DNA of 64,000 bases from an uncultured virus (IMG/VR IMGVR_UViG_3300042544_003275) (lineage: Duplodnaviria; Heunggongvirae; Uroviricota; Caudoviricetes). The DNA is taken from the IMG/VR virus record IMGVR_UViG_3300042544_003275. One strand, given 5' to 3'. The first letter of the stretch is position 1. Every line of letters starts with the position of its first letter. A program made the translations under genes and the position numbers. A model generated the notes under the pieces. It ran no database searches, had not been told where the DNA came from, and saw only the letters and a program-made list of their open reading frames with translations. This document shows positions 10,363-38,263 of this stretch, piece after piece.

Positions 10363-10437
10363 ATGACAACAATTTCTACATATTATTATGAGGTCGAGAG
10401 CAAAAGCTCCGTCAGACGAGTAGTGATTATGTCGTAA
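10363..10437 (+). CDS. attenuator leader peptide 1 (MTTISTYYYEVESKSSVRRVVIMS)
   Basis: 24-aa ORF with TAT-TAT-TAT-GAG-GTC-GAG ahead of terminator and Tyr/Glu tRNAs. Confidence 0.8.
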   Translation: MTTISTYYYEVESKSSVRRVVIMS

Positions 10438-10462
10438 TTGAAAAATATTATATAAACACTTC

Positions 10463-10494
10463 AACCCAGTCTGACTTATCAGACTGGGTTTTTT
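10463..10494 (+). terminator. attenuator terminator 1
   Basis: AACCCAGTCTGA-ctta-TCAGACTGGGTT + T tract; 5' arm complementary to GTCAGAC in leader. Confidence 0.85.
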
Positions 10495-10505
10495 GTTTTA
10501 AATTT

Positions 10506-10573
10506 GGGATGGGTTATGGTGACGGCCGGATCTGTAAAATCCTAGCAGGTGAGTTCGAGTCTCACACATCCCA
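10506..10573 (+). tRNA. atypical tRNA-Tyr(GTA), short D arm, no long variable arm
   Basis: Loop CTGTAAA; T arm GTGAG-TTCGAGT-CTCAC. Confidence 0.6.
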
Positions 10574-10579
10574 CAAAAT

Positions 10580-10651
10580 GTTCCGTTCGTCTAGCGGTAG
10601 GACATCTTCCTTTCAAGAAGAAGGTCACGGGTTCGAATCCCGTACGGAATA
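10580..10651 (+). tRNA. tRNA-Glu(TTC)
   Basis: Cloverleaf, loop CTTTCAA. Confidence 0.9.
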
Positions 10652-10656
10652 CAAAT

Positions 10657-10728
10657 GGTCCTGTCGACTAATGGTCAGGTCAACACCCTTTCAAGGTGCA
10701 GATGCGGGTTCGATCCCCGTCAGGACTA
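10657..10728 (+). tRNA. tRNA-Glu(TTC)
   Basis: Cloverleaf, loop CTTTCAA. Confidence 0.85.
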
Positions 10729-10748
10729 CAAAAAATAAAATGAAAAGA

Positions 10749-10780
10749 TTAGGTGGAAATGAAAAACTTCCTTATCTTTG
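10749..10780 (+). promoter_or_regulatory. internal Bacteroidota-type promoter in tRNA cluster 1
   Basis: TTAGGT...TATCTTTG. Confidence 0.55.
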
Positions 10781-10835
10781 TAAAACAAAAGAGGTAAATA
10801 TAAATCCAAGTAACCCCTTGGTTTTTTACTAACTT

Positions 10836-10907
10836 GGTCCCATCGTCTAACGGTTAGGACGTTAGGTTTTCATCCTAGAAATCGGAGTTCGATTCTCCGT
10901 GGGACTA
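10836..10907 (+). tRNA. tRNA-Glu(TTC)
   Basis: Cloverleaf, loop TTTTCAT. Confidence 0.9.
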
Positions 10908-11003
10908 CAAATATCGGAGTAATTAACCGATACTAACAAGAAGATGTATCATATATCGCAGTGAGATTTGGTACCAGTAATTTCTGATATGTCTACTTGA
11001 ATA

Positions 11004-11079
11004 ACTGCTTATGGTGTAAATTGGTTTGCACATCGGTCATTAGGCCGAAGGGCTATAGGTTCGAGTCCTATGGGTAGTT
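11004..11079 (+). tRNA. tRNA-like element, anticodon not assignable
   Basis: D, anticodon and T arms present but loop is 6 nt (TCGGT-CATTAG-GCCGA). Confidence 0.5.
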
Positions 11080-11084
11080 CATAT

Positions 11085-11167
11085 TGGAAGGTGGCAGAGT
11101 GGTTAAATGCGTTTGACTGTAAATCAAATCTCTTACGAGTACGGGGGTCCGAATCCCTCCCTTCCAA
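11085..11167 (+). tRNA. tRNA-Tyr(GTA)
   Basis: Loop CTGTAAA, long variable arm. Confidence 0.9.
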
Positions 11168-11169
11168 CA

Positions 11170-11200
11170 AAAAAACCTCTGATTTCTCAGAGGTTTTTTT
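11170..11200. terminator. bidirectional intrinsic terminator
   Basis: AAAAAACCTCTGA-tttc-TCAGAGGTTTTTTT between convergent units. Confidence 0.8.
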
Positions 11201-11202
11201 AT

Positions 11203-11547
11203 TTATTCAACAACATTTGATTCGGTCATTCCGTCTTCTTCGTCAACTTTCTGTATTAACATTTTATCTCTGTCTTCAGAATTAAACCAATAATCTACAA
11301 CTTTATTTAAGTTACCAACGAAAGCACCTAATAAAATTAATAACATTTCTTTCCAATCTTCGTTTATTGAAGCACCAAGAAAAACACCAGCATTAATTCC
11401 TAAAACTATAAGTACAAATATACCTAATACAATAGCGGTAATTCTCCATCTATTAGCTTGCATTTGTTGAAGCATATAGTAGAATCTGTTTTTATCTTCT
11501 ACTTTTACATAGTCAGTTTTACTACTAAAGAAATTTCTTATTCTCAT
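11203..11547 (-). CDS. small two-TM membrane protein (possibly holin-like)
   Basis: Two hydrophobic segments, charged C-terminus. Confidence 0.6.
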   Translation of the reverse strand: MRIRNFFSSKTDYVKVEDKNRFYYMLQQMQANRWRITAIVLGIFVLIVLGINAGVFLGASINEDWKEMLLILLGAFVGNLNKVVDYWFNSEDRDKMLIQKVDEEDGMTESNVVE

Positions 11548-11641
11548 ATATTTTTTTATTTTTATATATTAGAAAAATATTTTAATTTTTTTATTAGGGG
11601 GAATGAAACTTTTTATATATATTTGTATAAAATTAAACGAA

Positions 11642-11722
11642 ATGAAAAATTTAAATAACATATCAACAGCAATAATCGGAGGCGGCGCGGGAGCGAGAGT
11701 CACTGGCTGGATTATGTTGTAA
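11642..11722 (+). CDS. attenuator leader peptide 2 (MKNLNNISTAIIGGGAGARVTGWIML)
   Basis: 26-aa ORF with GCA-ATA-ATC-GGA-GGC-GGC-GCG-GGA-GCG ahead of terminator and Ile/Gly/Ala tRNAs. Confidence 0.8.
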   Translation: MKNLNNISTAIIGGGAGARVTGWIML

Positions 11723-11745
11723 TTTTTTATTAAAAGAATTAAACG

Positions 11746-11777
11746 AAACCCAGTCAATTATTTGACTGGGTTTTTTT
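11746..11777 (+). terminator. attenuator terminator 2
   Basis: AAACCCAGTCAA-ttat-TTGACTGGGTTT + T tract; CCAGTCA can pair with leader TGGCTGG. Confidence 0.85.
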
Positions 11778-11786
11778 GTTTTATAT

Positions 11787-11860
11787 TGGTGAGTAGCTTA
11801 GATGGTAAAAGCATGTGTCTTATACACACAAGATAGTGGGATCGTTACCCACCTCACCAA
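11787..11860 (+). tRNA. tRNA-Ile(TAT)
   Basis: TGTGT-CTTATAC-ACACA; T loop ATCGTTA. Confidence 0.8.
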
Positions 11861-11867
11861 CAAAATT

Positions 11868-11939
11868 GCGGGTATCGTATAATGGTTATTACACCGGCCT
11901 TCCAAGTCGGTGATGTCAGTTCGATTCTGGTTACCCGCA
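11868..11939 (+). tRNA. tRNA-Gly(TCC)
   Basis: Loop CTTCCAA. Confidence 0.9.
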
Positions 11940-11983
11940 CAACCTGCAGGATGATCCACCGTTGAATCACGGTGCCTGCTCCA

Positions 11984-12057
11984 GGGGGATTAGCTCAGCT
12001 GGCTAGAGCGCCGTGGTAGCACCGCGGATGTCAACGGTTCGAATCCGTTATCCTCCA
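11984..12057 (+). tRNA. tRNA-Ala(AGC)
   Basis: CCGTG-GTAGCAC-CGCGG, G3:U70 pair. Confidence 0.8.
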
Positions 12058-12066
12058 CTAATTTTA

Positions 12067-12139
12067 GGGGCTATCGTATAATAGGCTATTACAATGGGTT
12101 TGCAACTCATAGAACACGGTTCGATCCCGTGTAGCTCCA
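12067..12139 (+). tRNA. tRNA-Ala(TGC)
   Basis: Loop TTTGCAA, G3:U70 pair. Confidence 0.9.
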
Positions 12140-12282
12140 CTAAAAAATAACTAAATATATAGGAGAACAAGGGCTGTGGACGCAATTTAAAAAGTAAAGT
12201 AGAAAGAATCGAAGAAAGAAAAAAAGTAATCGGTTCTAAACATAGAAGAAAACTAAAAAGATATTCTGAGAGTTTTAACAGA

Positions 12283-12675
12283 ATGATTACATTTTTCTTC
12301 TTAATACAAAAAGGAGGTGTAATTACATTTTGTGGTTCACATACTGTTGTAGAATATGATCCGAATGGACCAGACTGTAAAGAATGTTTTAGACTACATG
12401 AAGATGGATATTATAGAGGTGGTAAACCAATTATAACTAGACATCCAAATATTCTGAAATCTGTCTTAATAGGAAAGAAAGGATGGGGATTGTGGGTTGA
12501 CCAATGGACTGAGGGTATTGTTGATTGGACATTCACTAAAGAAGAAATATTAAATGAATTTGAAAAGGTAAATGTAGAAATACCGGAACCATTTTTAATT
12601 GAGTTTAATAATACAATAGATAGGAAAAAGAAGAAGAGAAACTTGACTTATCTAGAACAGATAAAAAAGAAATGA
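12283..12675 (+). CDS. hypothetical protein inside tRNA cluster
   Basis: 130-aa ORF; start uncertain. Confidence 0.6.
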   Translation: MITFFFLIQKGGVITFCGSHTVVEYDPNGPDCKECFRLHEDGYYRGGKPIITRHPNILKSVLIGKKGWGLWVDQWTEGIVDWTFTKEEILNEFEKVNVEIPEPFLIEFNNTIDRKKKKRNLTYLEQIKKK

Positions 12676-12998
12676 CAATATTTAAGAACATAAACGATAA
12701 TCTACTCTATATTCTTTATAGGAATGTAAATGGTAGTTATGTTGCGATACCATATGAACATAAAGGAAAGTCAATAACGAATTGTAATCCAAAAGAATTT
12801 ATTCCTGTTAAAACAGGAAATAAGTTAGATGGATTTTTATAAAAAATAAAAAGAAATATGAAGAAAATAATATTAACGGGAGAATTTGAATCAAGTAAGG
12901 TTAAATTAAGAGGTAGTAGTGTAAAAATTGTTAAAGTAGCAAGAAAAAGTGCCCTAAGTAGATTAATAAAGAAACTTAAAAGTAGTAAATAAGTTCAA

Positions 12999-13071
<73 letters not shown>

Positions 13072-13125
13072 CAAATGGTAGATAAACTTTTATAATAAAG
13101 TTGATATAATTAAAAAGTAAAAACC

Positions 13126-13722
13126 ATGAAAGAAAAAATATTAAATCTTACACCATTATCAATTTTAGATAAGATTAATAGTGATTTTTTTATAGAAATT
13201 GACCAAGAGGAACATAAATCATATATTAAATCAGGAAACTATTATGAAAACTATTATGCTTTAGCAAGCTATTATCAACCAAAAAGTATTTTAGAAATAG
13301 GAGTTAGATATGGATATAGTTTAGGAACTATGATATCAGCATCTAATATTATTAAAAAAGTTACAGGTATTGATAATGATGAATACTCTTTAGGATCTTT
13401 AGAAGTTGCAAAAAATAATATTAAAAAATATATAAATTCTAATATTGAATTAAATTTTTCACTACAAGATTCACATAAAATAGAAAAATTAGAATATCAT
13501 GATATGATACATATTGATGGTGATCACTCATATGATGGTAAATTACAAGATCTTAAACTAACAATTGGTGCTTGTAAGGTTGTTATAATTGATGATTATT
13601 TACAGTTTAGTGAGGTTAATAGATCAACTAATACTTTTATATCTTATAATAAAGATATAATAGAAAATACTTATGTGTTAGATAATCATATAAGAGGAAC
13701 TATGATAATAGAATATAAATAA
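13126..13722 (+). CDS. class I SAM-dependent methyltransferase
   Basis: ILEIGVRYGYS and IHIDGDHSY motifs. Confidence 0.8.
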   Translation: MKEKILNLTPLSILDKINSDFFIEIDQEEHKSYIKSGNYYENYYALASYYQPKSILEIGVRYGYSLGTMISASNIIKKVTGIDNDEYSLGSLEVAKNNIKKYINSNIELNFSLQDSHKIEKLEYHDMIHIDGDHSYDGKLQDLKLTIGACKVVIIDDYLQFSEVNRSTNTFISYNKDIIENTYVLDNHIRGTMIIEYK

Positions 13723-13726
13723 TAAT

Positions 13727-14347
13727 ATGATAGATAACTATAGAAAACACAAAAATGGTGTTATTGAACAAATTGTAAAAGAACCATTTGATTATAATTT
13801 TGATTACTCTGATAACTATAATAGACTTGGTGAAATTGGCACAAGAATGGCTTATCTTAGACTGGGACATTTAATTGGAACCTTAGGTTTTGTACCTGAG
13901 TCAGTTATGGATATTGGTTATGGTAATGGTGACTTTTTAAAGGCATGTCAAAACATCATACCAAAATGTTACGCTAGTGATGTATCTGTTTATCCTTCAC
14001 CAGAAGGATGTGAATTTATTAAAGATCCAAACTCAATTAAGGTTGAGGTTGCTACTTTTTATGATGTTTTAGAACATTATAACAATATCTACGACATTAA
14101 AGACTTACAAGCTAATTATGTAGTTATATCTTTACCAAATTGTCATGACTTCAATGATGAATGGTTTGAAAATTGGAAACATAGAAAACCAAATGAACAT
14201 CTTTGGCATTTCAACTCTGAATCATTAATAAATTTTATGTCTGAAATTAATTATGAGGTAATTAATATTACAAATTTAGAAGATACAATTAGAAAAAATA
14301 ATTTAGAATATTCTAATATTTTAACTGGTGTTTTTAGAAGAAAATGA
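13727..14347 (+). CDS. SAM-dependent methyltransferase-like protein
   Basis: VMDIGYGNG, FYDVLEH, EHLWHF. Confidence 0.75.
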   Translation: MIDNYRKHKNGVIEQIVKEPFDYNFDYSDNYNRLGEIGTRMAYLRLGHLIGTLGFVPESVMDIGYGNGDFLKACQNIIPKCYASDVSVYPSPEGCEFIKDPNSIKVEVATFYDVLEHYNNIYDIKDLQANYVVISLPNCHDFNDEWFENWKHRKPNEHLWHFNSESLINFMSEINYEVINITNLEDTIRKNNLEYSNILTGVFRRK

Positions 14348-15009
14348 AGAAAAGAATAATAATAGAACAACCTTGGGGTGGATTGGGAGACAATATGCAG
14401 TTTAGTACCCTACCAGAAATCGGATCTCGACTTGGTTATGATGTTTACGTTTCAAATCACAATAAATATAGAAATTTAGATATTAAAAGATTAGTTTGGG
14501 ATATAAATCCTTTTATATCTGGTTATACTGATGAGAGAGGAAATTTGAATGAGTTATTTAGTCCAAATCCTATAAATAAGAATTTCCCTATTTTAGATAG
14601 ATGGAATGATAATCTTAACATAATACAGAATATAGAGTTTCAAATATTTGATAGATATTATAGTGAAAACCCAATACTTTATTATAGACCAAATTTAGAT
14701 AATAGCCTGTCTGATAAAATATTAATTGATCCAAATTCAATATCAACAAATGTCAATCTTGATTCAATAATAGATGAAATGAATAAAGAAGACTTAGTAT
14801 TATTGAATCAAGAAAGAGATGGATTTAATAGTATTAAATCTAATAGTATATTTGAATGGGTCGATATGATAACATCTTCAAAAAAATTTATATGTCAATT
14901 ATCCGGAGGAACTGTTGTTATGGCTGCTTATAATAAAAGTTGTACTGTTTATACTACGGGTAATAGTAGTATTTTTAATTTTAAAATTCACAATTATATA
15001 AATATATAA
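14344..15009 (+). CDS. putative glycosyltransferase-like protein
   Basis: N-terminal GGLGD motif; neighbours are methyltransferases. Confidence 0.45.
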   Translation: MKKRIIIEQPWGGLGDNMQFSTLPEIGSRLGYDVYVSNHNKYRNLDIKRLVWDINPFISGYTDERGNLNELFSPNPINKNFPILDRWNDNLNIIQNIEFQIFDRYYSENPILYYRPNLDNSLSDKILIDPNSISTNVNLDSIIDEMNKEDLVLLNQERDGFNSIKSNSIFEWVDMITSSKKFICQLSGGTVVMAAYNKSCTVYTTGNSSIFNFKIHNYINI

Positions 15010-15085
15010 ACTAAATTTAGAAAACTATCATTATATTTGTAAGTCCAGTTATTTAACTGGACTTTTTTATTAAACTAATCTACAT

Positions 15086-15655
15086 TTATAAAATTTGTTT
15101 TTTTAATAAGTCAATAAAGTCTATTGAGTTTAATCTACTAATATCATTTGTCATCATTTGATAAACCATATTACCAGCTCCTTCATTTCCTCTTAATCTC
15201 ATTTCCTCCATATTCATTTCTCTTTCAAAACCAATTGCTCTCATTGAATTAATAGCAAAGTCATTAGCATCTTTTTCTAATTCTCTATAAGATTGTAAAA
15301 ATGAATCTTTATCTCCATTTACAACTGTATCATAATAACCAGGCATTAATATACCCTCAGCATGTTGGTCACAATGTCTAGACTCATGAAGAGCTAAAAA
15401 CAACTTAACATGTGGAGGCATCGGAAGTCTTGAGTTGATAGCGATAACATCAGTTCCTAAAAATACTCCAGCAATTGGTTGTGGTGAACTAAATTGAAAA
15501 TAGTAAATTTTAATATTACTTCTATTTTGATTCCACCATTCAACTATTTGTTGTTTATTTGTTCTTATCCCTATATTATCTAAGAATTGGTCTATTGTTA
15601 CTTGATTATCTGGTGTAAGAGATTCAAACAACTTATAACTTTTTATATGTTTCAT
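15086..15655 (-). CDS. HExxH metallopeptidase-like protein with MKHIKSYKLFE N-terminus
   Basis: LHESRH ... EKDANDFA. Confidence 0.55.
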   Translation of the reverse strand: MKHIKSYKLFESLTPDNQVTIDQFLDNIGIRTNKQQIVEWWNQNRSNIKIYYFQFSSPQPIAGVFLGTDVIAINSRLPMPPHVKLFLALHESRHCDQHAEGILMPGYYDTVVNGDKDSFLQSYRELEKDANDFAINSMRAIGFEREMNMEEMRLRGNEGAGNMVYQMMTNDISRLNSIDFIDLLKKQIL

Positions 15656-15704
15656 ATTGTATATATTAATTTAATTAATTATATTAGCAAGGTAAAATAT
15701 TAAA

Positions 15705-16292
15705 ATGATTAAAGTTCTAAATGGTGTTCCAAAAGGTGAGTTTGGTCTTGCTTGTTCTGGTGGTGTAGATTCTATGGCTATTCTTGACTTTTTAATCAAT
15801 GGTAGATATAATCCACATGTTCTTTATTTTAATCATAATACTGAACACGGACACGAAGCTGAAAAATTTATTACAGATTATTGTAAAGAAAAAAATCTTA
15901 AACTAACTATTGGTAGAACTGAATTAAAACCAACATCTAATAAAGAAAAGATTTGGTCTGATTTAAGATATGAATTCTTTTCTCAGTTTGATTTTCCTAT
16001 TATGACTTGTCACCACTTAGATGATTGTGTTGAAACTTATTTATTCTCTTGTTTAAGAGGATTTCAATCTGTTATTCCTTATTCAAGAGGAAATGTAATT
16101 AGACCTTTTTTACTAAATGAGAAATCAGTATTTGAAAAATGGTGTAAACAAAAAGGTGTTCCGTTTATACAAGATCAATCTAACGATTGTTTAGACTATT
16201 CGAGAAATAGAATTAGAAATAAAATTGTTCCGGAAGCTCTTAAAGTAAATCCAGGACTTAAAACGGTTGTTAAAAAAATGATTAAATTATGA
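15705..16292 (+). CDS. tilS: tRNA(Ile)-lysidine synthetase, catalytic domain only
   Basis: SGGVDS PP-loop, HHLDD, IRPFL, DQSN, RNRIR. Confidence 0.85.
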   Translation: MIKVLNGVPKGEFGLACSGGVDSMAILDFLINGRYNPHVLYFNHNTEHGHEAEKFITDYCKEKNLKLTIGRTELKPTSNKEKIWSDLRYEFFSQFDFPIMTCHHLDDCVETYLFSCLRGFQSVIPYSRGNVIRPFLLNEKSVFEKWCKQKGVPFIQDQSNDCLDYSRNRIRNKIVPEALKVNPGLKTVVKKMIKL

Positions 16293-16597
16293 TATTAACG
16301 GAAGATAATTTCTATTTAGTAAAAGAAGAAATTAAAAAATTATTACTACTAAATAATTGGACAGAATCACAAATAGAAGAAGATTATGGATATGATACTG
16401 TATCCGATCTCAGCGGCATAATATGTGATTCGGTTAGTTACAAAAACAAGAAACATAAAGATTCATATGTTTACTATACATATGAATTTAATTTAAGTAA
16501 TACTACAAAATTAATAACTGAAACATTTGCTTATATCTCAGATGGAAGTGAATCACATTCACATGAATTTAATTTTGTTGAATACATAAAAGATTAA
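16289..16597 (+). CDS. hypothetical protein
   Basis: ORF coupled to tilS (ATGA overlap). Confidence 0.6.
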   Translation: MILTEDNFYLVKEEIKKLLLLNNWTESQIEEDYGYDTVSDLSGIICDSVSYKNKKHKDSYVYYTYEFNLSNTTKLITETFAYISDGSESHSHEFNFVEYIKD

Positions 16598-16603
16598 ATA
16601 AAT

Positions 16604-17266
16604 ATGGAATTATTTTTTTTCGACATAGAGACCGCGGGTCAATATAAAGACTATGATACTTTTTTAGACTCTGATGAAAGAGGTGCTAGACTTTTCTTAG
16701 GTAAGTACGAGAAAATGAACTGGTCAGAGAAATACGCTGATATCAACGAGGCTTACATTGAAAACGCTGGTATAATATCTACTTATGGTAGAATCGTTTG
16801 TATCTCATTTGGATTTATTGATAATGAGGGAAAGAGTAAAATATCATCTTATTATGGAGATAATGAAGAAGATATTGTTAATTCATTTAATAACTTATTG
16901 AAGAAGATAGAAACTAAGAATTTTAATCTTAGTGGATTTCGCATATTACACTTTGACATTGTTTGGATTTTAAGAAAATTAAGTAAATACAGAATAGAAC
17001 CAGCAAATATTATTTACACATATGATAAAAAACCATGGGATATGAGAATAACAGATATGTCTGATGATTGGAAAGGAAAGTTTGCTTGGTCAAATAGTTT
17101 TGATGAGTTATCTTATGAGTTAGGAGTACCATCCCCAAAATCTAACATTAACGGATCTGATGTTCATAAGTATTACTGGTCTGGTAGAGTTGAAGATGTT
17201 AAGACATATTGTGAAAAAGATGTTGAGGCTTGTATTGAAATATCCAAAATAATTTACAAAAAATGA
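16604..17266 (+). CDS. PolB-type 3'-5' exonuclease
   Basis: FFDIET, FDI, YCEKDV (DEDDy). Confidence 0.8.
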   Translation: MELFFFDIETAGQYKDYDTFLDSDERGARLFLGKYEKMNWSEKYADINEAYIENAGIISTYGRIVCISFGFIDNEGKSKISSYYGDNEEDIVNSFNNLLKKIETKNFNLSGFRILHFDIVWILRKLSKYRIEPANIIYTYDKKPWDMRITDMSDDWKGKFAWSNSFDELSYELGVPSPKSNINGSDVHKYYWSGRVEDVKTYCEKDVEACIEISKIIYKK

Positions 17267-17457
17267 TAGACATATATTTTATAGAATTTTATATTCAAAG
17301 AAAATACTCACAAAGATTAGAAGAGTATTTTGAAGTTAATAAATCAGTTGCCTCAAATTGGAGAAAAAATTCATTTCCGGAAAGAAGATTAAAAGAATTT
17401 TCATATAGAGAAGGAACATTAGATACTAAAGAACTATTTAGTAGAATATATTCATAG
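17263..17457 (+). CDS. small hypothetical, possible HTH protein
   Basis: 64 aa, VNKSVASNWRK. Confidence 0.5.
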   Translation: MIDIYFIEFYIQRKYSQRLEEYFEVNKSVASNWRKNSFPERRLKEFSYREGTLDTKELFSRIYS

Positions 17458-17499
17458 GTAGATAGAACTTTTTTATATATACTATAAATAAGTTTATAA

Positions 17500-18240
17500 A
17501 TGAAAAGGTGTTCTAAGTGTAATATAGAGAAAGAATTGGATGAATTTTATAAAAGAAAAGATTCAAAAGACGGATATAGAACTGATTGTAAAGAATGTAG
17601 AGATAACATTGTAAAAATATATCAAGAAAAGAATTATGATAAAGTTAGTGAGATAAAAAGAAAATACTATCTAAATAATAAAAATGATGTTATAGAAAGA
17701 ACCAAAATCTGGCAAAATGAAAATAAAGATAAATATAAAGAAATATCTAAAAAGTATAGAGAAAAACCTGAAGTTAAAGAAAGGCTAAAAAGTTATCATT
17801 TAGAAAACAACAAAAACAACGAAAACTACAAACTAAAAAGAAAAGAATACAGCAAAAATAATAATGATAAAATAAATGAAAGGCATAGAGAAAGATATAA
17901 AAATGATAACCTATATAAAATAAAATTTATGGTTCGTGGTATTATATGGAAATCATTAAATAGAAAAAAATATAAAAAAGGTTCAAAATCAGAAATAATA
18001 TTAGGATGTTCTTTTGAGGAATTTAAAATTTATTTAGAATCTAAATTTGAAAACTGGATGTTTTGGGAAAATTATGGTTTATACAATGGAGAACTAAATT
18101 ATGGGTGGGATGTTGACCATATTATACCTCTATCATCAGCAGAATCTGAAGAGGGGGTAATTAAACTAAATCATTACACTAACCTACAACCTCTTTGTAG
18201 TAAAGTAAATAGAGATATAAAAAAAGATTTATATGAATAA
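17500..18240 (+). CDS. HNH homing-endonuclease-like protein
   Basis: N-terminal CxxC..CxxC; C-terminal WDVDHIIP..HYTNLQPL..N. Confidence 0.8.
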   Translation: MKRCSKCNIEKELDEFYKRKDSKDGYRTDCKECRDNIVKIYQEKNYDKVSEIKRKYYLNNKNDVIERTKIWQNENKDKYKEISKKYREKPEVKERLKSYHLENNKNNENYKLKRKEYSKNNNDKINERHRERYKNDNLYKIKFMVRGIIWKSLNRKKYKKGSKSEIILGCSFEEFKIYLESKFENWMFWENYGLYNGELNYGWDVDHIIPLSSAESEEGVIKLNHYTNLQPLCSKVNRDIKKDLYE

Positions 18241-18496
18241 AAATAAAATGAAAAGGTCAACTATTTTAATTGGATTAGGGTCATTAAATTTGATTCATGG
18301 TATTCTACATATCTTACAATTTATTCAATCTTTATTATTGGTTAGTTCTTCACTGAAGGAAGATAATCATACTGGATTAGATGCTGTTTTACATAGTCCA
18401 ATTTTATCTATTGTTTGGGCTGTTATTGGACTAATAACTCTTTATATAGGTATTAAGGATTTCAGACATCATAAGAAATGTCATAATCATGAGTAA
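18233..18496 (+). CDS. small membrane protein
   Basis: Two hydrophobic helices, His-rich. Confidence 0.6.
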   Translation: MNKNKMKRSTILIGLGSLNLIHGILHILQFIQSLLLVSSSLKEDNHTGLDAVLHSPILSIVWAVIGLITLYIGIKDFRHHKKCHNHE

Positions 18497-18517
18497 AAAT
18501 AAAATATACAAATAATA

Positions 18518-20116
18518 TTGGCTGAGATAAAAGTAAATAGAACTAAGAAAAAACAATTGGGTCAGTTCATGACTCCTATTGATAAATGCCAAGAAATACT
18601 ATCCGGATATACATTTACTATCAATGATAAAGTTTTAGAACCATCTTTTGGTTGTGGTAATTTTATTGTTACTCTTATAGATAAGTTCATTCATTTATAT
18701 GAAGGTACAATAGAAGAAAGAATAACTAAAATTCTGAATAATAATATCTATGGTGTAGAGTTCGACGAAGAAAAGTATCAAGAGTGTATTGAAAATATTC
18801 GATATGAATATGGATTTGTACCTGATGAACATAATCTTGTTTTAGGAGACTACTTTCTTTACAAACCATCTATTAACTTTGATTATATAATTGGTAATCC
18901 TCCTTTTGGTGGAACAATCGATCCTACTTATCAAGATGAATTAGATAAAAAGTATGGTATAAGAAATGGTGAGAAAATAAAAAAAGAAACATATTCTTTC
19001 TTTATGATTAAATCTGTTGAGTCACTTAAAGAAAATGGTAAGTTAATTTTTATTAGTTCTGATACATTCTTAACAATCAAAAGTATGAAAGGTTTAAGAA
19101 TGTTCTTATTTGAAAATGGATATAATCAGATTGAAACTATACAATACTTTTCTGAAGAGACTGATTATCCAATGGTTGTTTTAACACATCATAAATCAAA
19201 TAAACAAAATCACATACTTTTAGATGAAGTTGAGATTCCTTATAATAATATGATTCTCACAAGTAATTTCTCTTGGTATATTCAAAGTGAGTATGTTAAA
19301 TACTTTAAGGGTAATAAATTAGGTGATTATATTCTTGGATCTGGTGGAATCACACTTGGTAAAAACGAATTATTTTTAAGAGAGATTAGAGAAGATAATA
19401 CAATACTTGAAGAATATGATTTCACATTTTTTGATGATACTATTACTTTAGAGAAAGAAATATCAAAAGCCAGAAATAATAAACTATCTTTTAATAAGAT
19501 AAAAGAAATTCAAGAATTAGAAAGAAAAGGTGTTACTAAAAGAAATGTAAAAATAACTAAGTTAGTTGAACCTATTGTTATTCAGCTACCTAATGATGAT
19601 TATTGTTTTTATAACAAATCATCGAATGAATCTTTATTTAGTAAACCAAACACCGTTGTTTATTGGAAAAATGATGGAGATGCTGTTATTACATTTAAGA
19701 AGAATGGTAACTGGTATTTACATGGAGTAGGTGGTAAATCTTTTTTTAAGAGAGAAGGAATAACTTGGCAATTGATATCATCTTCAATTAAAGCTAGATA
19801 TTTACCATCTGGTTATATTTTAGATGCTGGGTCACCGATAGTAGTTTTAAGAGACAATATAGAAAAACAAGAACTGTTTTTTATTATTGGTTGGTTATTA
19901 ACATCTAAATGTAATGAGATACTAAAGAGTGTTATCAATCATACAAAGAATATACAAAGTAAAGATATTGAAAGACTTCCTTATCCTTTCTGGGTTAATG
20001 AAGATAATAAAGAAAAAGTAATAAATTTGGTTAAGAATAATATCAACCGTAAAAAATCCACTGATCAATCTTCTGATAATTTATTTTTTCAATTAGAGGA
20101 ATTCTTTGATATATAA
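18518..20116 (+). CDS. N6-adenine DNA methyltransferase (Eco57I/TaqI-like)
   Basis: GQFMTP, LEPSFGCGNF, IGNPPF; TTG start. Confidence 0.85.
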   Translation: MAEIKVNRTKKKQLGQFMTPIDKCQEILSGYTFTINDKVLEPSFGCGNFIVTLIDKFIHLYEGTIEERITKILNNNIYGVEFDEEKYQECIENIRYEYGFVPDEHNLVLGDYFLYKPSINFDYIIGNPPFGGTIDPTYQDELDKKYGIRNGEKIKKETYSFFMIKSVESLKENGKLIFISSDTFLTIKSMKGLRMFLFENGYNQIETIQYFSEETDYPMVVLTHHKSNKQNHILLDEVEIPYNNMILTSNFSWYIQSEYVKYFKGNKLGDYILGSGGITLGKNELFLREIREDNTILEEYDFTFFDDTITLEKEISKARNNKLSFNKIKEIQELERKGVTKRNVKITKLVEPIVIQLPNDDYCFYNKSSNESLFSKPNTVVYWKNDGDAVITFKKNGNWYLHGVGGKSFFKREGITWQLISSSIKARYLPSGYILDAGSPIVVLRDNIEKQELFFIIGWLLTSKCNEILKSVINHTKNIQSKDIERLPYPFWVNEDNKEKVINLVKNNINRKKSTDQSSDNLFFQLEEFFDI

Positions 20117-20161
20117 AATATTTTTTATATCTTTGTATTCAATCAATTAAAAATAATCACT

Positions 20162-20287
20162 ATGGCGAGAATCAAAGAAATTTACATGGAAATTTTAGAA
20201 AAGTACGGAGAGGATGTTGAAGTAACAGAAGAACTTTTCGGAAAATATCTTGATGAAAAACAAAAAGAAGAAGAATCAAAATAATTA
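20162..20287 (+). CDS. small acidic hypothetical protein (41 aa)
   Basis: MARIKEIYMEILEK.., own TATCTTTG promoter and terminator. Confidence 0.55.
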
Positions 20288-20331
20288 AAACCCATCTAAT
20301 TTTTTAGATGGGTTTTTTTATATATACTTCA

Positions 20332-20880: not shown

Positions 20881-20892
20881 TATATTTACAAA

Positions 20893-22229: not shown

Positions 22230-22259
22230 ATTTATTTATATTAAAAAAATAAAATATGT

Positions 22260-22622: not shown

Positions 22623-22696
22623 TAAAGTATATATTAAATAGAATATTTAAAATAGGGTGTATATACATTTATATATAAGTAAAATTAGAATTAATT

Positions 22697-25400: not shown

Positions 25401-25585
25401 TTTGGTGAAATGTAAATAACACCGTATATTTGTAGAACAATTGAGAGAGGCAACGATTCAGATACAACTCTTGATTGTTTTTACATTTTATTTTATAAAA
25501 AATTAGGTAGAATTAAAACTTTTTACTAATTTTGTATAAAATAAGAACAAAACAACAAAAGGAAGAATAACTTTTTAATATATAC
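25401..25585 (+). promoter_or_regulatory. tandem promoters upstream of leader 3
   Basis: TTTG..TATATTTG, TTAGG..TAATTTTG, and GGAAGAA..TAATATATA. Confidence 0.6.
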
Positions 25586-25589: not shown

Positions 25590-25700
25590 ATGAGAACAAT
25601 GAATTTAAATATGAACATTAATACACTGACAGTGGTGAATAATACGTTATGTATTAGACCATCTGAGGGTTTTGTCATATCTAAACGATTTGTTAGTTAA
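25590..25700 (+). CDS. attenuator leader peptide 3 (MRTMNLNMNINTLTVVNNTLCIRPSEGFVISKRFVS)
   Basis: First 23 residues use only M,R,T,N,L,I,V,C, the amino acids of the downstream tRNA array. Confidence 0.85.
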   Translation: MRTMNLNMNINTLTVVNNTLCIRPSEGFVISKRFVS

Positions 25701-25735
25701 CATGGAATAATAACAAATTAAATAAAGGATAATCG

Positions 25736-25767
25736 AAACCCTCAGTCTAAAAACTGAGGGTTTTTTT
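25736..25767 (+). terminator. attenuator terminator 3
   Basis: AAACCCTCAGT-ctaaaa-ACTGAGGGTTT + T tract; leader contains CTGAGGGTTTTG. Confidence 0.9.
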
Positions 25768-25782
25768 ATGTCTAAAAAATTT

Positions 25783-25856
25783 GGGATAGTAGCTACAATG
25801 GTCAGAGCAATCGCCTGTTAAGCGAAAGGTTGAAGGTTCGAGTCCTTCCTATCCCG
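25783..25856 (+). tRNA. tRNA-Asn(GTT)
   Basis: Loop CTGTTAA, G73. Confidence 0.9.
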
Positions 25857-25863
25857 CAAACAA

Positions 25864-25949
25864 CGGTAGGTACCCGAGCGGTCTTCAGGGACTAGTCTGA
25901 TACACTAGGTGACGTAATCACAACGTGGGTTCAAATCCCACCCTACCGA
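25864..25949 (+). tRNA. tRNA-Ile(GAT) with long variable arm
   Basis: CTAGT-CTGATAC-ACTAG then GTGA-cgtaa-TCAC arm. Confidence 0.7.
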
Positions 25950-25955
25950 CTAAAT

Positions 25956-26027
25956 GGCCCCTTCGTCCAATGGACAGGACGTCGCTCTTCTAAAGCGAAG
26001 ATACTGGTTCGAATCCAGTAGGGGTTA
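25956..26027 (+). tRNA. tRNA-Arg(TCT)
   Basis: Loop CTTCTAA. Confidence 0.9.
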
Positions 26028-26042
26028 CTAAAAAATAAATAT

Positions 26043-26116
26043 TCTCCTGTAGCTCAGTTGGTTAGAGCATCTGACTGTTAATCAGAGGGTCGCTGGTTCG
26101 AGTCCAGCCGGGAGAG
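26043..26116 (+). tRNA. tRNA-Asn(GTT)
   Basis: Canonical cloverleaf. Confidence 0.95.
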
Positions 26117-26121
26117 CAAAT

Positions 26122-26202
26122 GTCGAAGTGGTGGAATGGTAGACACGCTAACCTTAGGAGTTAGTACCAAACGGTGTGTGGGTTCGAGCCCCACCTTCGA
26201 TA
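26122..26202 (+). tRNA. tRNA-Leu(TAG)
   Basis: Loop CTTAGGA, variable arm. Confidence 0.9.
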
Positions 26203-26208
26203 CAAAAA

Positions 26209-26283
26209 GGGTCTGTAGTACTAAATGAGCAAAACTTCTGCCTGTTAAGCAGAGAGATGTCGGTTCGAATCCGACTGGACCCG
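26209..26283 (+). tRNA. tRNA-Asn(GTT), irregular D arm
   Basis: TCTGC-CTGTTAA-GCAGA. Confidence 0.75.
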
Positions 26284-26292
26284 CAAAAAAAT

Positions 26293-26365
26293 AGTCTTGT
26301 AGCTCAATCGGGGGAGCGCCACTGTTACATAGTGGAGGGAGTCGGATCGTAACCGACCAGGACTA
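26293..26365 (+). tRNA. tRNA-Val(TAC)
   Basis: CCACT-GTTACAT-AGTGG; T loop ATCGTAA. Confidence 0.8.
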
Positions 26366-26371
26366 CAAAAC

Positions 26372-26444
26372 TGTCGATTAGCTCATTTGGTAGAGCACTT
26401 GTCTGATACACAAGAGGTGGTGGGATCGTAACCCGCATCGACAA
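26372..26444 (+). tRNA. tRNA-Ile(GAT)
   Basis: CTTGT-CTGATAC-ACAAG; T loop ATCGTAA. Confidence 0.85.
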
Positions 26445-26452
26445 CTAAAAAT

Positions 26453-26535
26453 GGTCCCGTGGCCGAGTGGTGTAGAAATACGGGAGGTAGTGGATTGCAA
26501 ACTCACTCACGCTGGTTCGAATCCAGCCGGGACCT
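26453..26535 (+). tRNA. tRNA-Cys(GCA), enlarged D loop
   Basis: Loop TTGCAAA, U73. Confidence 0.75.
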
Positions 26536-26541
26536 CAAAAT

Positions 26542-26613
26542 TGTCTTGTAGCTCAATGGGAGAGCACTTCCTTGACATGGAAGAGGTAGTGGGATCGTTA
26601 CCCACCAGGACAA
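26542..26613 (+). tRNA. tRNA-Val(GAC)
   Basis: CTTCC-TTGACAT-GGAAG; T loop ATCGTTA. Confidence 0.85.
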
Positions 26614-26619
26614 CAACAA

Positions 26620-26692
26620 GCCTTTGTAGCTCAGCAGGTAGAGCAACTCCCTTGTAAGGAGAAGGTCGCAGGTTCGATTCCTGTCAAAGGCT
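26620..26692 (+). tRNA. tRNA-Thr(TGT)
   Basis: Loop CTTGTAA. Confidence 0.9.
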
Positions 26693-26696
26693 CAAT

Positions 26697-26811
26697 AATG
26701 GATGGTGATTAAGAGTGTTACTTCGTGAAATGGTATACACATTTGTCTTAAAAACAAACTTTTGAAGGTTCAAGTCCTTCAGTAAAATCACTCTTTAGAC
26801 TTTCCTCCATT
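26697..26811 (+). ncRNA. tRNA-Leu(TAA)-like core embedded in an extended stem
   Basis: D, anticodon (CTTAAAA) and T arms closed by AAGAGTG-TTACT / AGTAA-aat-CACTCTT. Confidence 0.55.
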
Positions 26812-26815
26812 ATAT

Positions 26816-26905
26816 GCTCCAGTGGCGAAACTGGTTGAAACGCGTGAGATTTAAAATCTCATACCCTCGTGGAAAACGTTGTGGGTTCAAATCCCACCTG
26901 GAGTA
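26816..26905 (+). tRNA. tRNA-Leu(TAA)
   Basis: TGAGA-TTTAAAA-TCTCA, variable arm. Confidence 0.9.
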
Positions 26906-26915
26906 CTAAATATAA

Positions 26916-26988
26916 GCAGTTATCGTATAGTCGGTGATTACACGTCCTTGGTACGGACGAGACCCCGGTTCGATTCCGGGTATCTGCT
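26916..26988 (+). tRNA. tRNA-Thr(GGT)
   Basis: CGTCC-TTGGTAC-GGACG. Confidence 0.9.
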
Positions 26989-26997
26989 CAAATAAAT

Positions 26998-27078
26998 GCC
27001 TAAATGGTGGAATGGTAGACACGATCGTTTAAGGGGCGATTGCTGAAAGGTGTGAGAGTTCGAGTCTCTCTTTAGGTA
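26998..27078 (+). tRNA. tRNA-Leu(AAG)
   Basis: ATCGT-TTAAGGG-GCGAT, Leu-type D and variable arms. Confidence 0.8.
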
Positions 27079-27110
27079 CTGAAGTGAAACGAAAGTTCAC
27101 TACAAAATAT

Positions 27111-27180
27111 GCCGCGGCTTAGTGGAAAAGGACATTGGCTCATATCCGATGTTAAGTGAGTTCGAACCTCATACGCGGTA
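27111..27180 (+). tRNA. tRNA with CAT anticodon (Met or Ile2), degenerate D arm
   Basis: ATTGG-CTCATAT-CCGAT, T arm present. Confidence 0.55.
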
Positions 27181-27185
27181 CAAAT

Positions 27186-27266
27186 GTCAGAATGGTGGAA
27201 TGGTATACACACTGGTTTCAAAAGCCAGCGCCTAACGGTATGAGAGTTCAAGTCTCTCTTCTGATA
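27186..27266 (+). tRNA. tRNA-Leu(CAA)
   Basis: CTGGT-TTCAAAA-GCCAG. Confidence 0.9.
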
Positions 27267-27288
27267 CTCGATAAAAAAACCAATAAAA

Positions 27289-27498: not shown

Positions 27499-27529
27499 TT
27501 AAAAAACCCATCAAATAATTTGATGGGTT

Positions 27530-36679: not shown

Positions 36680-36714
36680 ATCATATCTTTGTACTTAAAT
36701 TAAAAATATTAAAA

Positions 36715-36933
36715 ATGTCAAATATTAAAAATTGGGGTGAGTTCCTAAAAGACGTACCAACAGATGCTTTATTATCTGAGGTAGAAAAGAGAAAAATTAA
36801 ACAATCTACTTCAGTAAGTGAATCAGCAAATGAAATCATGAGTCAAATCGATAAAGCGATTGAAATGTTTGGTAGTTATAGTTTTGATGATAAAGGACCA
36901 TTCCTTGAGGAACTCCAGCAAGATTTTAGATAA
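36715..36933 (+). CDS. hypothetical protein; may continue by frameshift into 36860..37051
   Basis: Overlapping acidic ORFs in two frames. Confidence 0.5.
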   Translation: MSNIKNWGEFLKDVPTDALLSEVEKRKIKQSTSVSESANEIMSQIDKAIEMFGSYSFDDKGPFLEELQQDFR

Positions 36934-37066
36934 CTATTCAAATTATGAAAGAGCATTTAGTGTTGTTGGTTGTATCATTGGTGAGTTTGATAGTCTACCA
37001 GAAGATGAATTTGACGAACTTTTAGATTCTGATGAAAGATTTGAATATTAAAAAAACCAAAATAAA

Positions 37067-37150
37067 TTTGGTAGATTAAAAACAAATACATATCTTTGTA
37101 CTATACTATTAAGAAATAGTAAAAAGGAAGAATAATATTTTAATATATAA
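37067..37150 (+). promoter_or_regulatory. tandem promoters upstream of leader 4
   Basis: TTTG..TATCTTTG and AAAAGGAAGAA..TAATATATA. Confidence 0.6.
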
Positions 37151-37156
37151 GAAATA

Positions 37157-37252
37157 ATGAAAACAATTAACGTAAATATCGCACAAGTTAACCCGCAACC
37201 TCAGGATCAGGATTCTAAGGAAGTGACTAACTATGTCTTTACAATAAGTTAA
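37157..37252 (+). CDS. attenuator leader peptide 4 (MKTINVNIAQVNPQPQDQDSKEVTNYVFTIS)
   Basis: PQPQDQD run ahead of terminator and Pro/Asp/Gln tRNAs. Confidence 0.85.
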   Translation: MKTINVNIAQVNPQPQDQDSKEVTNYVFTIS

Positions 37253-37275
37253 TAAAAACATTAAACGATTTGTAT

Positions 37276-37315
37276 AAACCCAGTTAGTCTTTGATTAACT
37301 GGGTTTTTTTTTTTT
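37276..37315 (+). terminator. attenuator terminator 4
   Basis: AAACCCAGTTAGTC-ttt-GATTAACTGGGTTT + T tract; leader GACTAACT complements AGTTAGTC. Confidence 0.9.
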
Positions 37316-37324
37316 AGTAAAAAA

Positions 37325-37398
37325 CGGGTAGTGACTAAGGTTTTAAGCACGGGGGCTCTGGAAGCTTCAGTTAGTCGGTTCGATTCCGACCTACCCGA
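37325..37398 (+). tRNA. tRNA-Pro(TGG), atypical
   Basis: C1:G72, A73; loop TCTGGAA (C33), weak D arm. Confidence 0.6.
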
Positions 37399-37404
37399 CA
37401 AAAT

Positions 37405-37477
37405 GGTCTATTGGTGAAATGGCTTATCATCCCACCCTGTCACGGTGGAGTAGACGGATCGTAACCGTCATAGACCG
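37405..37477 (+). tRNA. tRNA-Asp(GTC)
   Basis: CCACC-CTGTCAC-GGTGG; T loop ATCGTAA. Confidence 0.85.
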
Positions 37478-37539
37478 CACGAAGTATAATTGGACAGAAA
37501 CGTACTCTTTAGGGGATAGAGTAAAAGAATTCTCAAAAC

Positions 37540-37612
37540 GGATGTGAGGTCAAACGGTTAAGATGTCTGCCTGTCACGCAGTTCGGAGCGGGTTCAACTC
37601 CCGTCACGTCCG
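37540..37612 (+). tRNA. tRNA-Asp(GTC)
   Basis: Loop CTGTCAC, G73. Confidence 0.85.
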
Positions 37613-37624
37613 CAAAAATAATAA

Positions 37625-37696
37625 GGTCCTGTCGTCCAATGGTAGGATAACCCGTTGTCTGCGGGATGGTTGCGGGTTCGAGTCCCGTCAGGACCG
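37625..37696 (+). tRNA. tRNA-Asp(GTC)
   Basis: CCCG-TTGTCTG-CGGG, G73. Confidence 0.75.
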
Positions 37697-37707
37697 CTAA
37701 AATATTT

Positions 37708-37783
37708 CGGAGAGTAGAGGAGTCTGGTTTATCTCGGGCCGTTTGGGGCGGTCAGCACGTGGGTTCAAATCCCGCCTCTCCGA
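37708..37783 (+). tRNA. tRNA-Pro(TGG)
   Basis: GGCCG-TTTGGGG-CGGTC, C1:G72. Confidence 0.9.
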
Positions 37784-37803
37784 CAAAAAAATTAAAATTA
37801 AAA

Positions 37804-38049
37804 ATGTTTGTATTCAGAAGAAGTATAACAAATGAAGAATGTGAAGTAGTCGAATTAAAAGGTTCATTAGAAGGTCTTAACTATCGTTTGGATAGTTTAA
37901 TTAATATAAGTAACAGACCTGATAATAGAAGTGACTTAACTGATGAAATAAACCGTGTTAAAAACGAAATTGAAATAAAAGAAATAAAACTAAAAGAAAT
38001 GAGAACATTAGTACAATTCCAGCAACAACAAATTAATCGAACAGATTGA
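37804..38049 (+). CDS. 81-aa coiled-coil ORF whose last 16 codons form leader 5
   Basis: MFVFRRS.. in frame with MRTLVQFQQQQINRTD. Confidence 0.5.
   Translation: MFVFRRSITNEECEVVELKGSLEGLNYRLDSLINISNRPDNRSDLTDEINRVKNEIEIKEIKLKEMRTLVQFQQQQINRTD
37999..38049 (+). CDS. attenuator leader peptide 5 (MRTLVQFQQQQINRTD)
   Basis: Five Gln codons, followed by terminator and two tRNA-Gln. Confidence 0.75.
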   Translation: MRTLVQFQQQQINRTD

Positions 38050-38077
38050 TAATGGAATAATATTGTGTAAACTTTAT

Positions 38078-38111
38078 AAACCCTATTCAATCTTTTGGAT
38101 AGGGTTTTTTT
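38078..38111 (+). terminator. attenuator terminator 5
   Basis: AAACCCTATTCAA-tctt-TTGGATAGGGTTT + T tract. Confidence 0.85.
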
Positions 38112-38113
38112 AT

Positions 38114-38184
38114 TGTTGAGTCGTCTAATGGCAGGACACATGATTTTGGCTCATGTAATGGTGGTTCGAGTCCACCCCCGACAA
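38114..38184 (+). tRNA. tRNA-Gln(TTG)
   Basis: CATGA-TTTTGGC-TCATG, U1:A72. Confidence 0.85.
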
Positions 38185-38191
38185 CAAACAT

Positions 38192-38263
38192 TGAGAAGTC
38201 GTCTAATGGCAGGATACCTGACTTTGAATCAGGAAGATGTAGGTTCGACCCCTACCTTCTCAA
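38192..38263 (+). tRNA. tRNA-Gln(TTG)
   Basis: CCTGA-CTTTGAA-TCAGG, U1:A72. Confidence 0.9.

Follow-up and report, generated by a model that had tools for sequence, protein, structure and literature searches.

The window analyzed here is a stretch of 64,000 nucleotides (nt) from an uncultured virus of the Caudoviricetes (IMG/VR record IMGVR_UViG_3300042544_003275). It is AT-rich phage DNA (G+C 25-42%), in which ARAGORN predicted 33 tRNA genes at its default threshold and, at a relaxed one, four further plausible genes. Between positions 10363 and 38264, all five multi-tRNA arrays (5/5) are preceded by an open reading frame (ORF) of 16-36 codons, followed by a strong hairpin of the terminator type and its U-tract, and the genes downstream of these cassettes are tRNAs only. 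The stop codon of the leader ORF lies 22-34 nt before the terminator stem, and the terminator lies 3-22 nt before the first tRNA. A preliminary description of the window had pointed out these five layouts, four of them with a promoter, and had read them as leader-peptide attenuators of tRNA genes; all five were recovered in place. Their components are as follows, with the terminator limits of the cassette table in parentheses.

10295..10326, + strand: promoter-like site of leader 1, TTTGG-N19-TATATTTG
10363..10437, + strand: leader ORF 1 (Glu/Tyr family), 24 codons, peptide MTTISTYYYEVESKSSVRRVVIMS, regulatory run YYYEVE
10463..10498 (10463-10490), + strand: terminator 1, 12-bp stem and U-tract
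10503..11168, + strand: tRNA array 1, Tyr (relaxed threshold only), Glu, Glu, internal promoter at 10749, Glu, Tyr
11594..11625, + strand: promoter-like site of leader 2, motif match
11642..11722, + strand: leader ORF 2 (Ile/Gly/Ala family), 26 codons, peptide MKNLNNISTAIIGGGAGARVTGWIML, regulatory run AIIGGGAGA
11745..11784 (11745-11774), + strand: terminator 2, predicted hairpin
11787..12140, + strand: tRNA array 2, Ile(tat), Gly(tcc), Ala(agc), Ala(tgc)
25503..25534, + strand: promoter-like site of leader 3, motif match, with a second site at 25401
25590..25700, + strand: leader ORF 3 (Asn/Leu/Thr/Val/Ile/Arg/Met family), 36 codons, peptide MRTMNLNMNINTLTVVNNTLCIRPSEGFVISKRFVS
25735..25772 (25735-25764), + strand: terminator 3, all cells (100%) paired in the alignment of 34 sequences
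25783..27267, + strand: tRNA array 3, 3 Asn, 2 Ile, 1 Arg, 5 Leu, 2 Val, and 2 Thr (15 tRNAs at the ARAGORN default), with Thr(agt) and Met(cat) added at the relaxed threshold
37067..37098, + strand: promoter-like site of leader 4, motif match
37157..37252, + strand: leader ORF 4 (Pro/Asp family), 31 codons, peptide MKTINVNIAQVNPQPQDQDSKEVTNYVFTIS, regulatory run PQPQDQD
37276..37318 (37276-37306), + strand: terminator 4, predicted hairpin
37325..37784, + strand: tRNA array 4, Pro(tgg), Asp, Asp, Asp, Pro(tgg)
37999..38049, + strand: leader ORF 5 (Gln family), 16 codons, peptide MRTLVQFQQQQINRTD, run QFQQQQ
38078..38113 (38078-38107), + strand: terminator 5, predicted hairpin
38114..38264, + strand: tRNA array 5, two Gln(ttg)

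The promoter motif TTWGG-N19-TANNTTTG, which we take to be a promoter of the Bacteroidota -33/-7 type, was found 10 times in the window versus 0.26 expected, and nine of the 10 sites precede RNA genes. Four of the five cassettes have such a site, beginning at 10295, 11594, 25503, and 37067, respectively, and leader 5 has no promoter of its own. A scan of the window for the sigma-70 consensus revealed no enrichment (107 found versus 112 expected). Terminator-like hairpins were also in excess, with 24 in the region 9500-28000 against 5.3 +/- 2.7 expected. Among the 16 on the + strand of the window, a short ORF ends 22-35 nt upstream of only five, and these all precede tRNAs; the remaining + strand hairpins of the same type close genes or arrays (e.g., 11170, 27503, and 20288). 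A strong G+C stem with a U-tract of 6-12 nt stands directly before the first tRNA in every case. Leader 5 is in frame with an 81-codon ORF (37804-38049), for which Pfam gave only a sub-threshold coiled-coil match and which is not conserved in relatives. The tRNA-Gly(gcc) at 12999-13072 may belong to the unit of array 2.

Among 50,697 phage records, only two relatives of the window were found, LR745206.1 and LR756502.1, which are unannotated genomes of uncultured phages (634,780 and 642,428 bp), and DNA nearly identical to the window is present in many lake-water metagenome runs. Each of the two relatives has cassettes at seven arrays, five of them homologous to those of the window. Together with pattern scans of IMG/VR, the relatives brought the total to 42 instances in seven families, and a metagenome scan revealed 28 more distinct variants of the Asn/Leu/Thr/Val (NLTV) leader, to which leader 3 belongs, so that 34 homologues could be aligned. 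The cassettes are conserved over at least 12 contigs and 34 metagenome variants. Chance matches of the pattern scans were dropped (11 of 14 IMG/VR loci, 54 of 62 later loci with fewer than two tRNAs, and 67 of 102 metagenome loci without a leader frame). Homologues were identified for leaders 1 and 2 (L004, L011, L033, L092, and L093), leader 4 (L005, L012, L030, L031, L032, and L034), and leader 5 (L005, L012, and L029-L032; 16-17 codons). The Gln leader of L030 likewise shares its frame with a longer ORF, of 43 codons.

All 42 instances keep the ATG, an open frame of 16-38 codons, and a stop codon 17-36 nt before the stem. Over all instances, the terminators have stems of 10-14 bp and a U-tract, and the first tRNA follows 5-130 nt after them (3-22 nt in the window). 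An exception is L002 of LR756502.1, where a small ORF (1783-1983) separates the terminator of the NLTV leader from the first tRNA, about 235 nt further on. The cassettes are paralogous, having the same promoter and the start ATGA(A/C/G)AAC in common. Two of the seven families lie outside the window and were unknown when the hypothesis was formed; both, and members found later, fit the rule. The leaders of one, reading ...THKNFSKSHKWF... (also quoted as ...HKNFSKSHKWF...) and ...KHKHFSKLNKWF..., precede His/Phe/Trp/Lys (HFWK) arrays, and those of the other, reading ...SKSSSRSSS... and ...SSRSRSS..., precede Arg(acg)/Ser (RS) arrays. The families of leaders 1, 2, 4, and 5 are referred to as EY, IGA, PD, and Q, respectively.

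Leader codons and downstream tRNAs

The codons clustered in the leaders had been described as matching the tRNAs downstream. The four runs YYYEVE, AIIGGGAGA, PQPQDQD, and QFQQQQ are real, and their match was assessed by a three-frame scan of the whole window, in which 11614 windows were scored for residue match to the array. In leaders 1, 2, 3, and 5, 5/6, 8/8, 15/16, and 5/6 residues were cognate, and null windows as good numbered 40, 10, 74, and 10 of the 11614, respectively; these four leaders are individually unusual (p about 0.0009-0.006). For leader 4, the match holds only if the Gln tRNAs of the next array are counted, in which case 7/7 residues are cognate and 10/11614 null windows are equal. 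In leader 3, codons 1-20 and 22-23, that is, 22 of the first 23 residues, specify amino acids carried by the 15-17 tRNAs of its array. Agreement in eight tRNA types had been claimed for leader and array 3; seven of them match, and the eighth, Cys, does not, since no tRNA-Cys was found in this array by ARAGORN.

At the codon level, 843 leader codons were compared with the anticodons under standard wobble. In the ATG frame, 287 of these 843 codons were cognate; in the two remaining frames, the counts were 132/843 and 89/843. When the seven leader families were paired with the seven tRNA sets, the true pairing ranked first among the 5040 permutations, with or without column centring for set size, so that the correlation suggested as a check against shuffled pairings in relatives was borne out. 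The match extends to synonymous codons: the family with an Arg(tct) array uses AGA, and that with an Arg(acg/tcg) array mostly uses CGN, with one AGA also present in L080. Gap runs were multiples of three in 11 of 14 cases inside the ORFs versus 6 of 30 after the stop codon (Fisher p = 0.0005). In the 34 variants of the NLTV leader, 618 of 637 regulatory residues fall within the set {N, I, R, L, V, T, M}. Taken together, the frame-specific enrichment, the rank of the true pairing, the Arg codon match, the gap pattern, and the substitutions within the set indicate that the leader ORFs carry the marks of translated sequence selected for codon content, not for peptide function.

Predicted pairing between leaders and terminator arms

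Each leader in the window contains a segment of 7-12 nt (segment 2) complementary to the 5′ arm of its terminator. Segment 2 starts 9-13 nt after the last regulatory codon and can pair with the loop-proximal part of the arm (segment 3).

10411..10417, + strand: segment 2 of leader 1, GTCAGAC, 7 bp, pairs with 10469-10475
11704..11710, + strand: segment 2 of leader 2, TGGCTGG, 7 bp including one G-U, pairs with 11750-11756
25663..25674, + strand: segment 2 of leader 3, CTGAGGGTTTTG, 12 bp, pairs with 25734-25745
37225..37232, + strand: segment 2 of leader 4, GACTAACT, 8 bp, pairs with 37282-37289
38043..38049, + strand: segment 2 of leader 5, AGATTGA, 7 bp, including the TGA stop, pairs with 38087-38093

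The complementarity, which the preliminary description had noticed in every leader, proved to be specific to the family: the 5′ arm of a leader's own family gave the best duplex in 7/7 families, and the identity pairing was the best of 5040 permutations. The pairing occurs at the same leader position in the homologues, and 92-100% of cells are paired in the core helices. In the HFWK helix, two of the six pairs are compensatory and 100% of cells are paired, with 9/500 shuffles as good; in the RS helix, one of the eight pairs is compensatory and 100% of cells are paired. In the 34 NLTV sequences, pair 90:162 is CG in 15, UA in 10, UG in 9, and unpaired in none (Fisher p = 0.0007, uncorrected for relatedness); the covariation score of the NLTV helix was reached in 8/500 shuffles, and a neighboring pair is G-C in 26, G-U in 6, and A-U in 2. 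The TGGCTG(G) motif of leader 2 is kept in L004, L011, and L033 despite a different reading frame, which points to a constraint at the RNA level. Some of the shuffle tests on the complementarity of single instances were weak (e.g., 36/300 and 71/300), and single-sequence minimum-free-energy folding missed the antiterminators of leaders 2 and 5, which were found only by duplex search and comparison.

The effect of a ribosome on the fold was modeled for the seven families by treating its footprint as unpaired bases in equilibrium folding. In IGA, Q, and RS, a ribosome placed on the first or middle regulatory codon gave antiterminator probabilities of 0.85-0.99, and one at the stop codon gave 0.00; in Q, the value was still 0.85 when the ribosome stood on the last regulatory codon. 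The sequence itself documents the ORFs, the terminators, the competing helices, the codon match, the coding-type conservation, and the family-specific complementarity.

Proposed attenuation of tRNA arrays and alternative explanations

These features suggest that each cassette is a multivalent leader-peptide transcription attenuator of its tRNA array that feeds back on decoding capacity, a reading to which we assign a probability of roughly 0.78. Leader translation, termination, and the direction of the switch, as we infer them, would proceed as follows. Host RNA polymerase would initiate at the upstream promoter, and a ribosome would translate the short leader. If aminoacyl-tRNAs for the regulatory run were scarce, the ribosome would stall at the run, which specifies the amino acids carried by the downstream tRNAs and, for the most part, uses the very codons that these decode. 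The stalled ribosome would leave segment 2 free to pair with segment 3, the terminator hairpin would be unable to nucleate, and the polymerase would enter the tRNA genes. Under fast decoding, the ribosome would cross segment 2 to the stop codon, the terminator would form, and the array would not be transcribed. A tRNA set would probably be made only when ribosomes read its codons slowly, and the outcome would be a negative feedback by which each set of phage tRNAs is produced according to the demand for its decoding.

Multivalent leader-peptide attenuators are known from enterobacteria, namely those of thr (Thr and Ile) and of ilvGMEDA and ilvBN (Ile/Leu/Val). Like these, the cassettes combine a short leader, here predicted to be translated, that carries a codon run for several amino acids with a following intrinsic terminator and an alternative pairing of its 5′ arm, and stalling is expected to cause read-through. 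Unlike the thr and ilv attenuators, they would regulate tRNAs instead of biosynthetic enzymes, and would restore decoding capacity instead of amino-acid supply; a huge phage carries 5-7 paralogous copies of them, every copy suited to the array that it precedes; they have no sequence or covariance-model similarity to Rfam leader families; and a 1:2 hairpin is not clearly present. The cassettes have four of the structural features of ribosome-mediated attenuators (the short ORF, the regulatory codons, the terminator, and the antiterminator helix), and fall outside the classical scope because the regulated genes are tRNAs. In Escherichia coli, the pheST operon for phenylalanyl-tRNA synthetase is controlled by leader-peptide attenuation. 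It resembles the cassettes in that a component of the translation apparatus is attenuated and not a biosynthetic pathway; it differs in that the operon encodes a protein, the synthetase, and responds to one amino acid only, whereas the cassettes have a tRNA product and multivalent signals.

tRNA genes are textbook examples of growth-rate and stringent control at the level of the promoter. The preliminary description knew of no attenuation of tRNA genes, and our search of the full-text literature, whose coverage of subscription journals was thin, likewise gave no description of leader-peptide attenuation of such genes. For huge "Mahaphage" genomes, the passages on tRNAs in Al-Shayeb et al. (2020; PMC7162821) deal with tRNA content only, with up to 67 tRNAs per genome, and the stem "attenuat" is absent from the main text; the same paper predicts Bacteroidetes hosts for its genomes larger than 634 kb.

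Several observations weigh against attenuation by a stalled ribosome. First, the footprint model did not yield a switch in four families: in EY, NLTV, PD, and HFWK, the antiterminator was predicted with the ribosome absent, stalled, or at the stop codon, which lies 18-26 nt beyond segment 2 in these leaders. The architecture and codon match of ribosome-mediated attenuation are strongly supported by comparison, but a simple footprint switch, as expected from folding with the footprint masked, was obtained in silico in only 3/7 families. The "off" state of the other four would depend on kinetics or on the bulk of the ribosome between segments 2 and 3. Even in two of the switching families, segment 2 is covered when the ribosome stands on the final codon of the run (antiterminator probability 0.01 in IGA and 0.12 in RS). 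The 1:2 (anti-antiterminator) hairpin is weak in NLTV (RNAalifold consensus -6.45 kcal/mol) and was not predicted by RNAalifold in PD. Segments 2 and 3 are separated by 37-64 nt, more than in trp. In the duplex comparison, the IGA row is marginal, with -11.7 for its own arm versus -11.6 and -11.4 for two others, and the small alignments A1-A3, 92-95% paired, contain 0-1 compensatory pairs and are equaled by shuffles.

The codon match also has gaps. On Pro/Asp alone, leader 4 scores 3/6 (p = 0.23), no better than chance; the Cys codon of the NLTV leaders is conserved with no tRNA-Cys in the array; the HFWK leaders contain the non-cognate Ser and Asn; and AGT-Ser codons stand in the RS leaders, while Ser(gct) is present in only one of the five arrays. 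Finally, the RNA-library contigs on the region (Logan, metatranscriptome) come from relatives, mostly 90-95% alike, and prove no transcript. One of them, 184 nt long, spans 25721-25879, from the terminator into tRNA-Asn; it may derive from DNA, and such contigs show no ends, so that it is no evidence of read-through.

The lack of a switch in the equilibrium model in four of the seven families would suit translated mini-genes followed by constitutive, leaky terminators that set a low basal transcription of the tRNAs, the amino-acid match having another purpose or being a by-product of duplication. The paralogy of the cassettes, with their common promoter and ATGA(A/C/G)AAC start, is consistent with such an origin. 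However, duplication alone would produce leaders that are alike and not leaders matched to their arrays, for which the true pairing was the best of 5040, and a family-specific complementarity between leader and arm with compensatory changes would be purposeless in a constitutive terminator. We regard this explanation as improbable, although it is the strongest of the alternatives.

Slightly less probable is that the same parts work by an inverted or different logic, such as a stall-triggered cleavage or processing of the mRNA that frees the tRNA precursor, or a translation-dependent protection from Rho or RNases, by which the leader would act instead of through the intrinsic terminator. Such schemes draw on the "off" state, which the footprint model does not explain in four families. 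Against them, the strong G+C stem with its U-tract of 6-12 nt and an antiterminator on the loop-proximal 5′ arm fit the control of an intrinsic terminator.

A ribosome-free sensor made of RNA only, in which tRNA anticodons would read the codon runs directly, the bound tRNA would stabilize one fold, and the ORF would be incidental, has a known counterpart in the T-box (RF00230). The T-box likewise senses tRNA status through a codon-anticodon match and acts through a terminator/antiterminator switch, so that matched codon runs next to such a pair follow T-box logic as well; direct feedback by the product is also conceivable, since the tRNAs are the product. T-boxes differ from the cassettes in using one specifier codon within a large conserved scaffold and in controlling synthetase, biosynthesis, and transport genes. 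The leaders, about 100-180 nt long, have no specifier-loop scaffold. No match to RF00230 was found in the leader regions at the gathering score or at E <= 1, nor any at the gathering score to His_leader, Phe_leader, Thr_leader, Leu_leader, or Trp_leader of Rfam; the best sub-threshold leader matches, His_leader (21.1 bits versus 49) and Phe_leader (21 versus 55), both lay on the terminator hairpin. An incidental ORF is also hard to reconcile with the ATG, the open frame, and the stop 17-36 nt before the stem kept in 42/42 instances, with indels in multiples of three inside the ORF only, and with cognate codon enrichment in the ATG frame only, and these facts, which point to translation, make an RNA-only sensor a little more doubtful still. 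A chance association of hairpins with short ORFs, which are common in AT-rich DNA between genes, might account for the weak shuffles of single instances (36/300 and 71/300), but has a negligible probability in view of two permutation tests that each gave 1 of 5040, conservation over at least 12 contigs and 34 metagenome variants, and the fit of the out-of-sample families.

Beyond this phage, we lean toward the view that tRNA arrays of huge phages are under demand-sensing control, each with its own multivalent attenuator that would gauge in real time how well the infected cell decodes the codons served by that array, and are turned on when host tRNAs run short through codon-usage mismatch, starvation, or tRNA-cleaving defences. 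The cassettes would then represent a new regulatory class, a translation-coupled feedback on tRNA supply with a built-in sensor of tRNA-targeting immunity. Cleavage by PrrC-type anticodon nucleases, one trigger named in the preliminary description, would be speculative, and no sequence in the window points to it. If the attenuation reading is true, the phage would match each tRNA set to demand through the ribosome itself. This would explain the grouping of phage tRNAs by amino acid into separate arrays and would connect the tRNA genes of phages directly, and in a testable way, with the depletion of host tRNAs or with defence. Modular, codon-programmable cassettes of about 150 nt could then serve as sensors of specific decoding capacity, and the 34 natural variants of one leader, together with the seven paralogous families, offer a ready-made mutational series.

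Neighboring genes and minor features

Further promoter-like sites and hairpins were observed around the cassettes. Inside array 1, a promoter-like site and a small hairpin (CCAAGTAACCCCTTGG followed by T6) precede the third tRNA-Glu (10749-10835) with no leader ORF, and the same hairpin occurs upstream of the Ile/Gly/Ala leader in LR745206.1. The two promoter-like sites that precede leader 3 are separated by a small U-tract hairpin at 25433-25485 (about 1520-1570 in L001); its loop, GGCAACGATTCAGATACAA, is conserved in LR745206.1, and it may be a small RNA. In L030 (reverse complement, 114-263), a Pro/Asp leader peptide identical to that of the window is combined with a different terminator hairpin and with an array in which tRNA-Gln comes first, which looks like a modular exchange of cassette parts. 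The motif TTTWATATATA has 12 sites in the window versus 1.2 expected (e.g., 25574, 37139, 38282, 28080(-), 32454(-), 47162, and 10108). Most of the sites stand 4-7 nt upstream of a start codon, on one strand or the other, and one is 17 nt upstream of the tRNA-Met at 10136. Possible roles are a translation signal and a second, phage-type promoter from which leaderless mRNAs would arise.

Some of the tRNA genes are unusual. The tRNA-Tyr (10503-10576), tRNA-Thr(agt) (26453-26536), and tRNA-Met (27108-27183) were found by ARAGORN at the relaxed threshold only, and none of the three is among the Rfam matches at the gathering score. A tRNA-like gene at 11005-11078 also falls below the usual thresholds (Rfam, 23.4 bits). 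These four may be odd or decaying tRNAs. The tRNA-Ile(gat) at 25864-25950 is 87 nt long, and in a relative (L001, 2031-2120 and 2374-2460), Arg(tct) and Asn(gtt) are 90 and 87 nt long, respectively, which suggests long variable arms in isotypes that normally have none.

Pfam matches in the window include a class I tRNA synthetase of the Glu/Gln type (28292-29764) and a PP-loop ATPase (15705-16292), from the family to which tRNA-Ile lysidine synthase belongs; the two genes suggest a translation-related island around the arrays. Other matches are a ClpB-like AAA+ chaperone (51770-53896), a collagen-repeat protein of 1631 amino acids (2866-7761), and an M42 peptidase (8147-9217). A GOLLD RNA was identified at 49448-49857 with 278.7 bits over the full Rfam model, probably starting from about 48930. 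It is flanked by a tRNA-Met at 48850 and a tRNA-Ser-like gene at 49868, and three tandem promoter-like sites (48558, 48696, and 48782) lie upstream of it.

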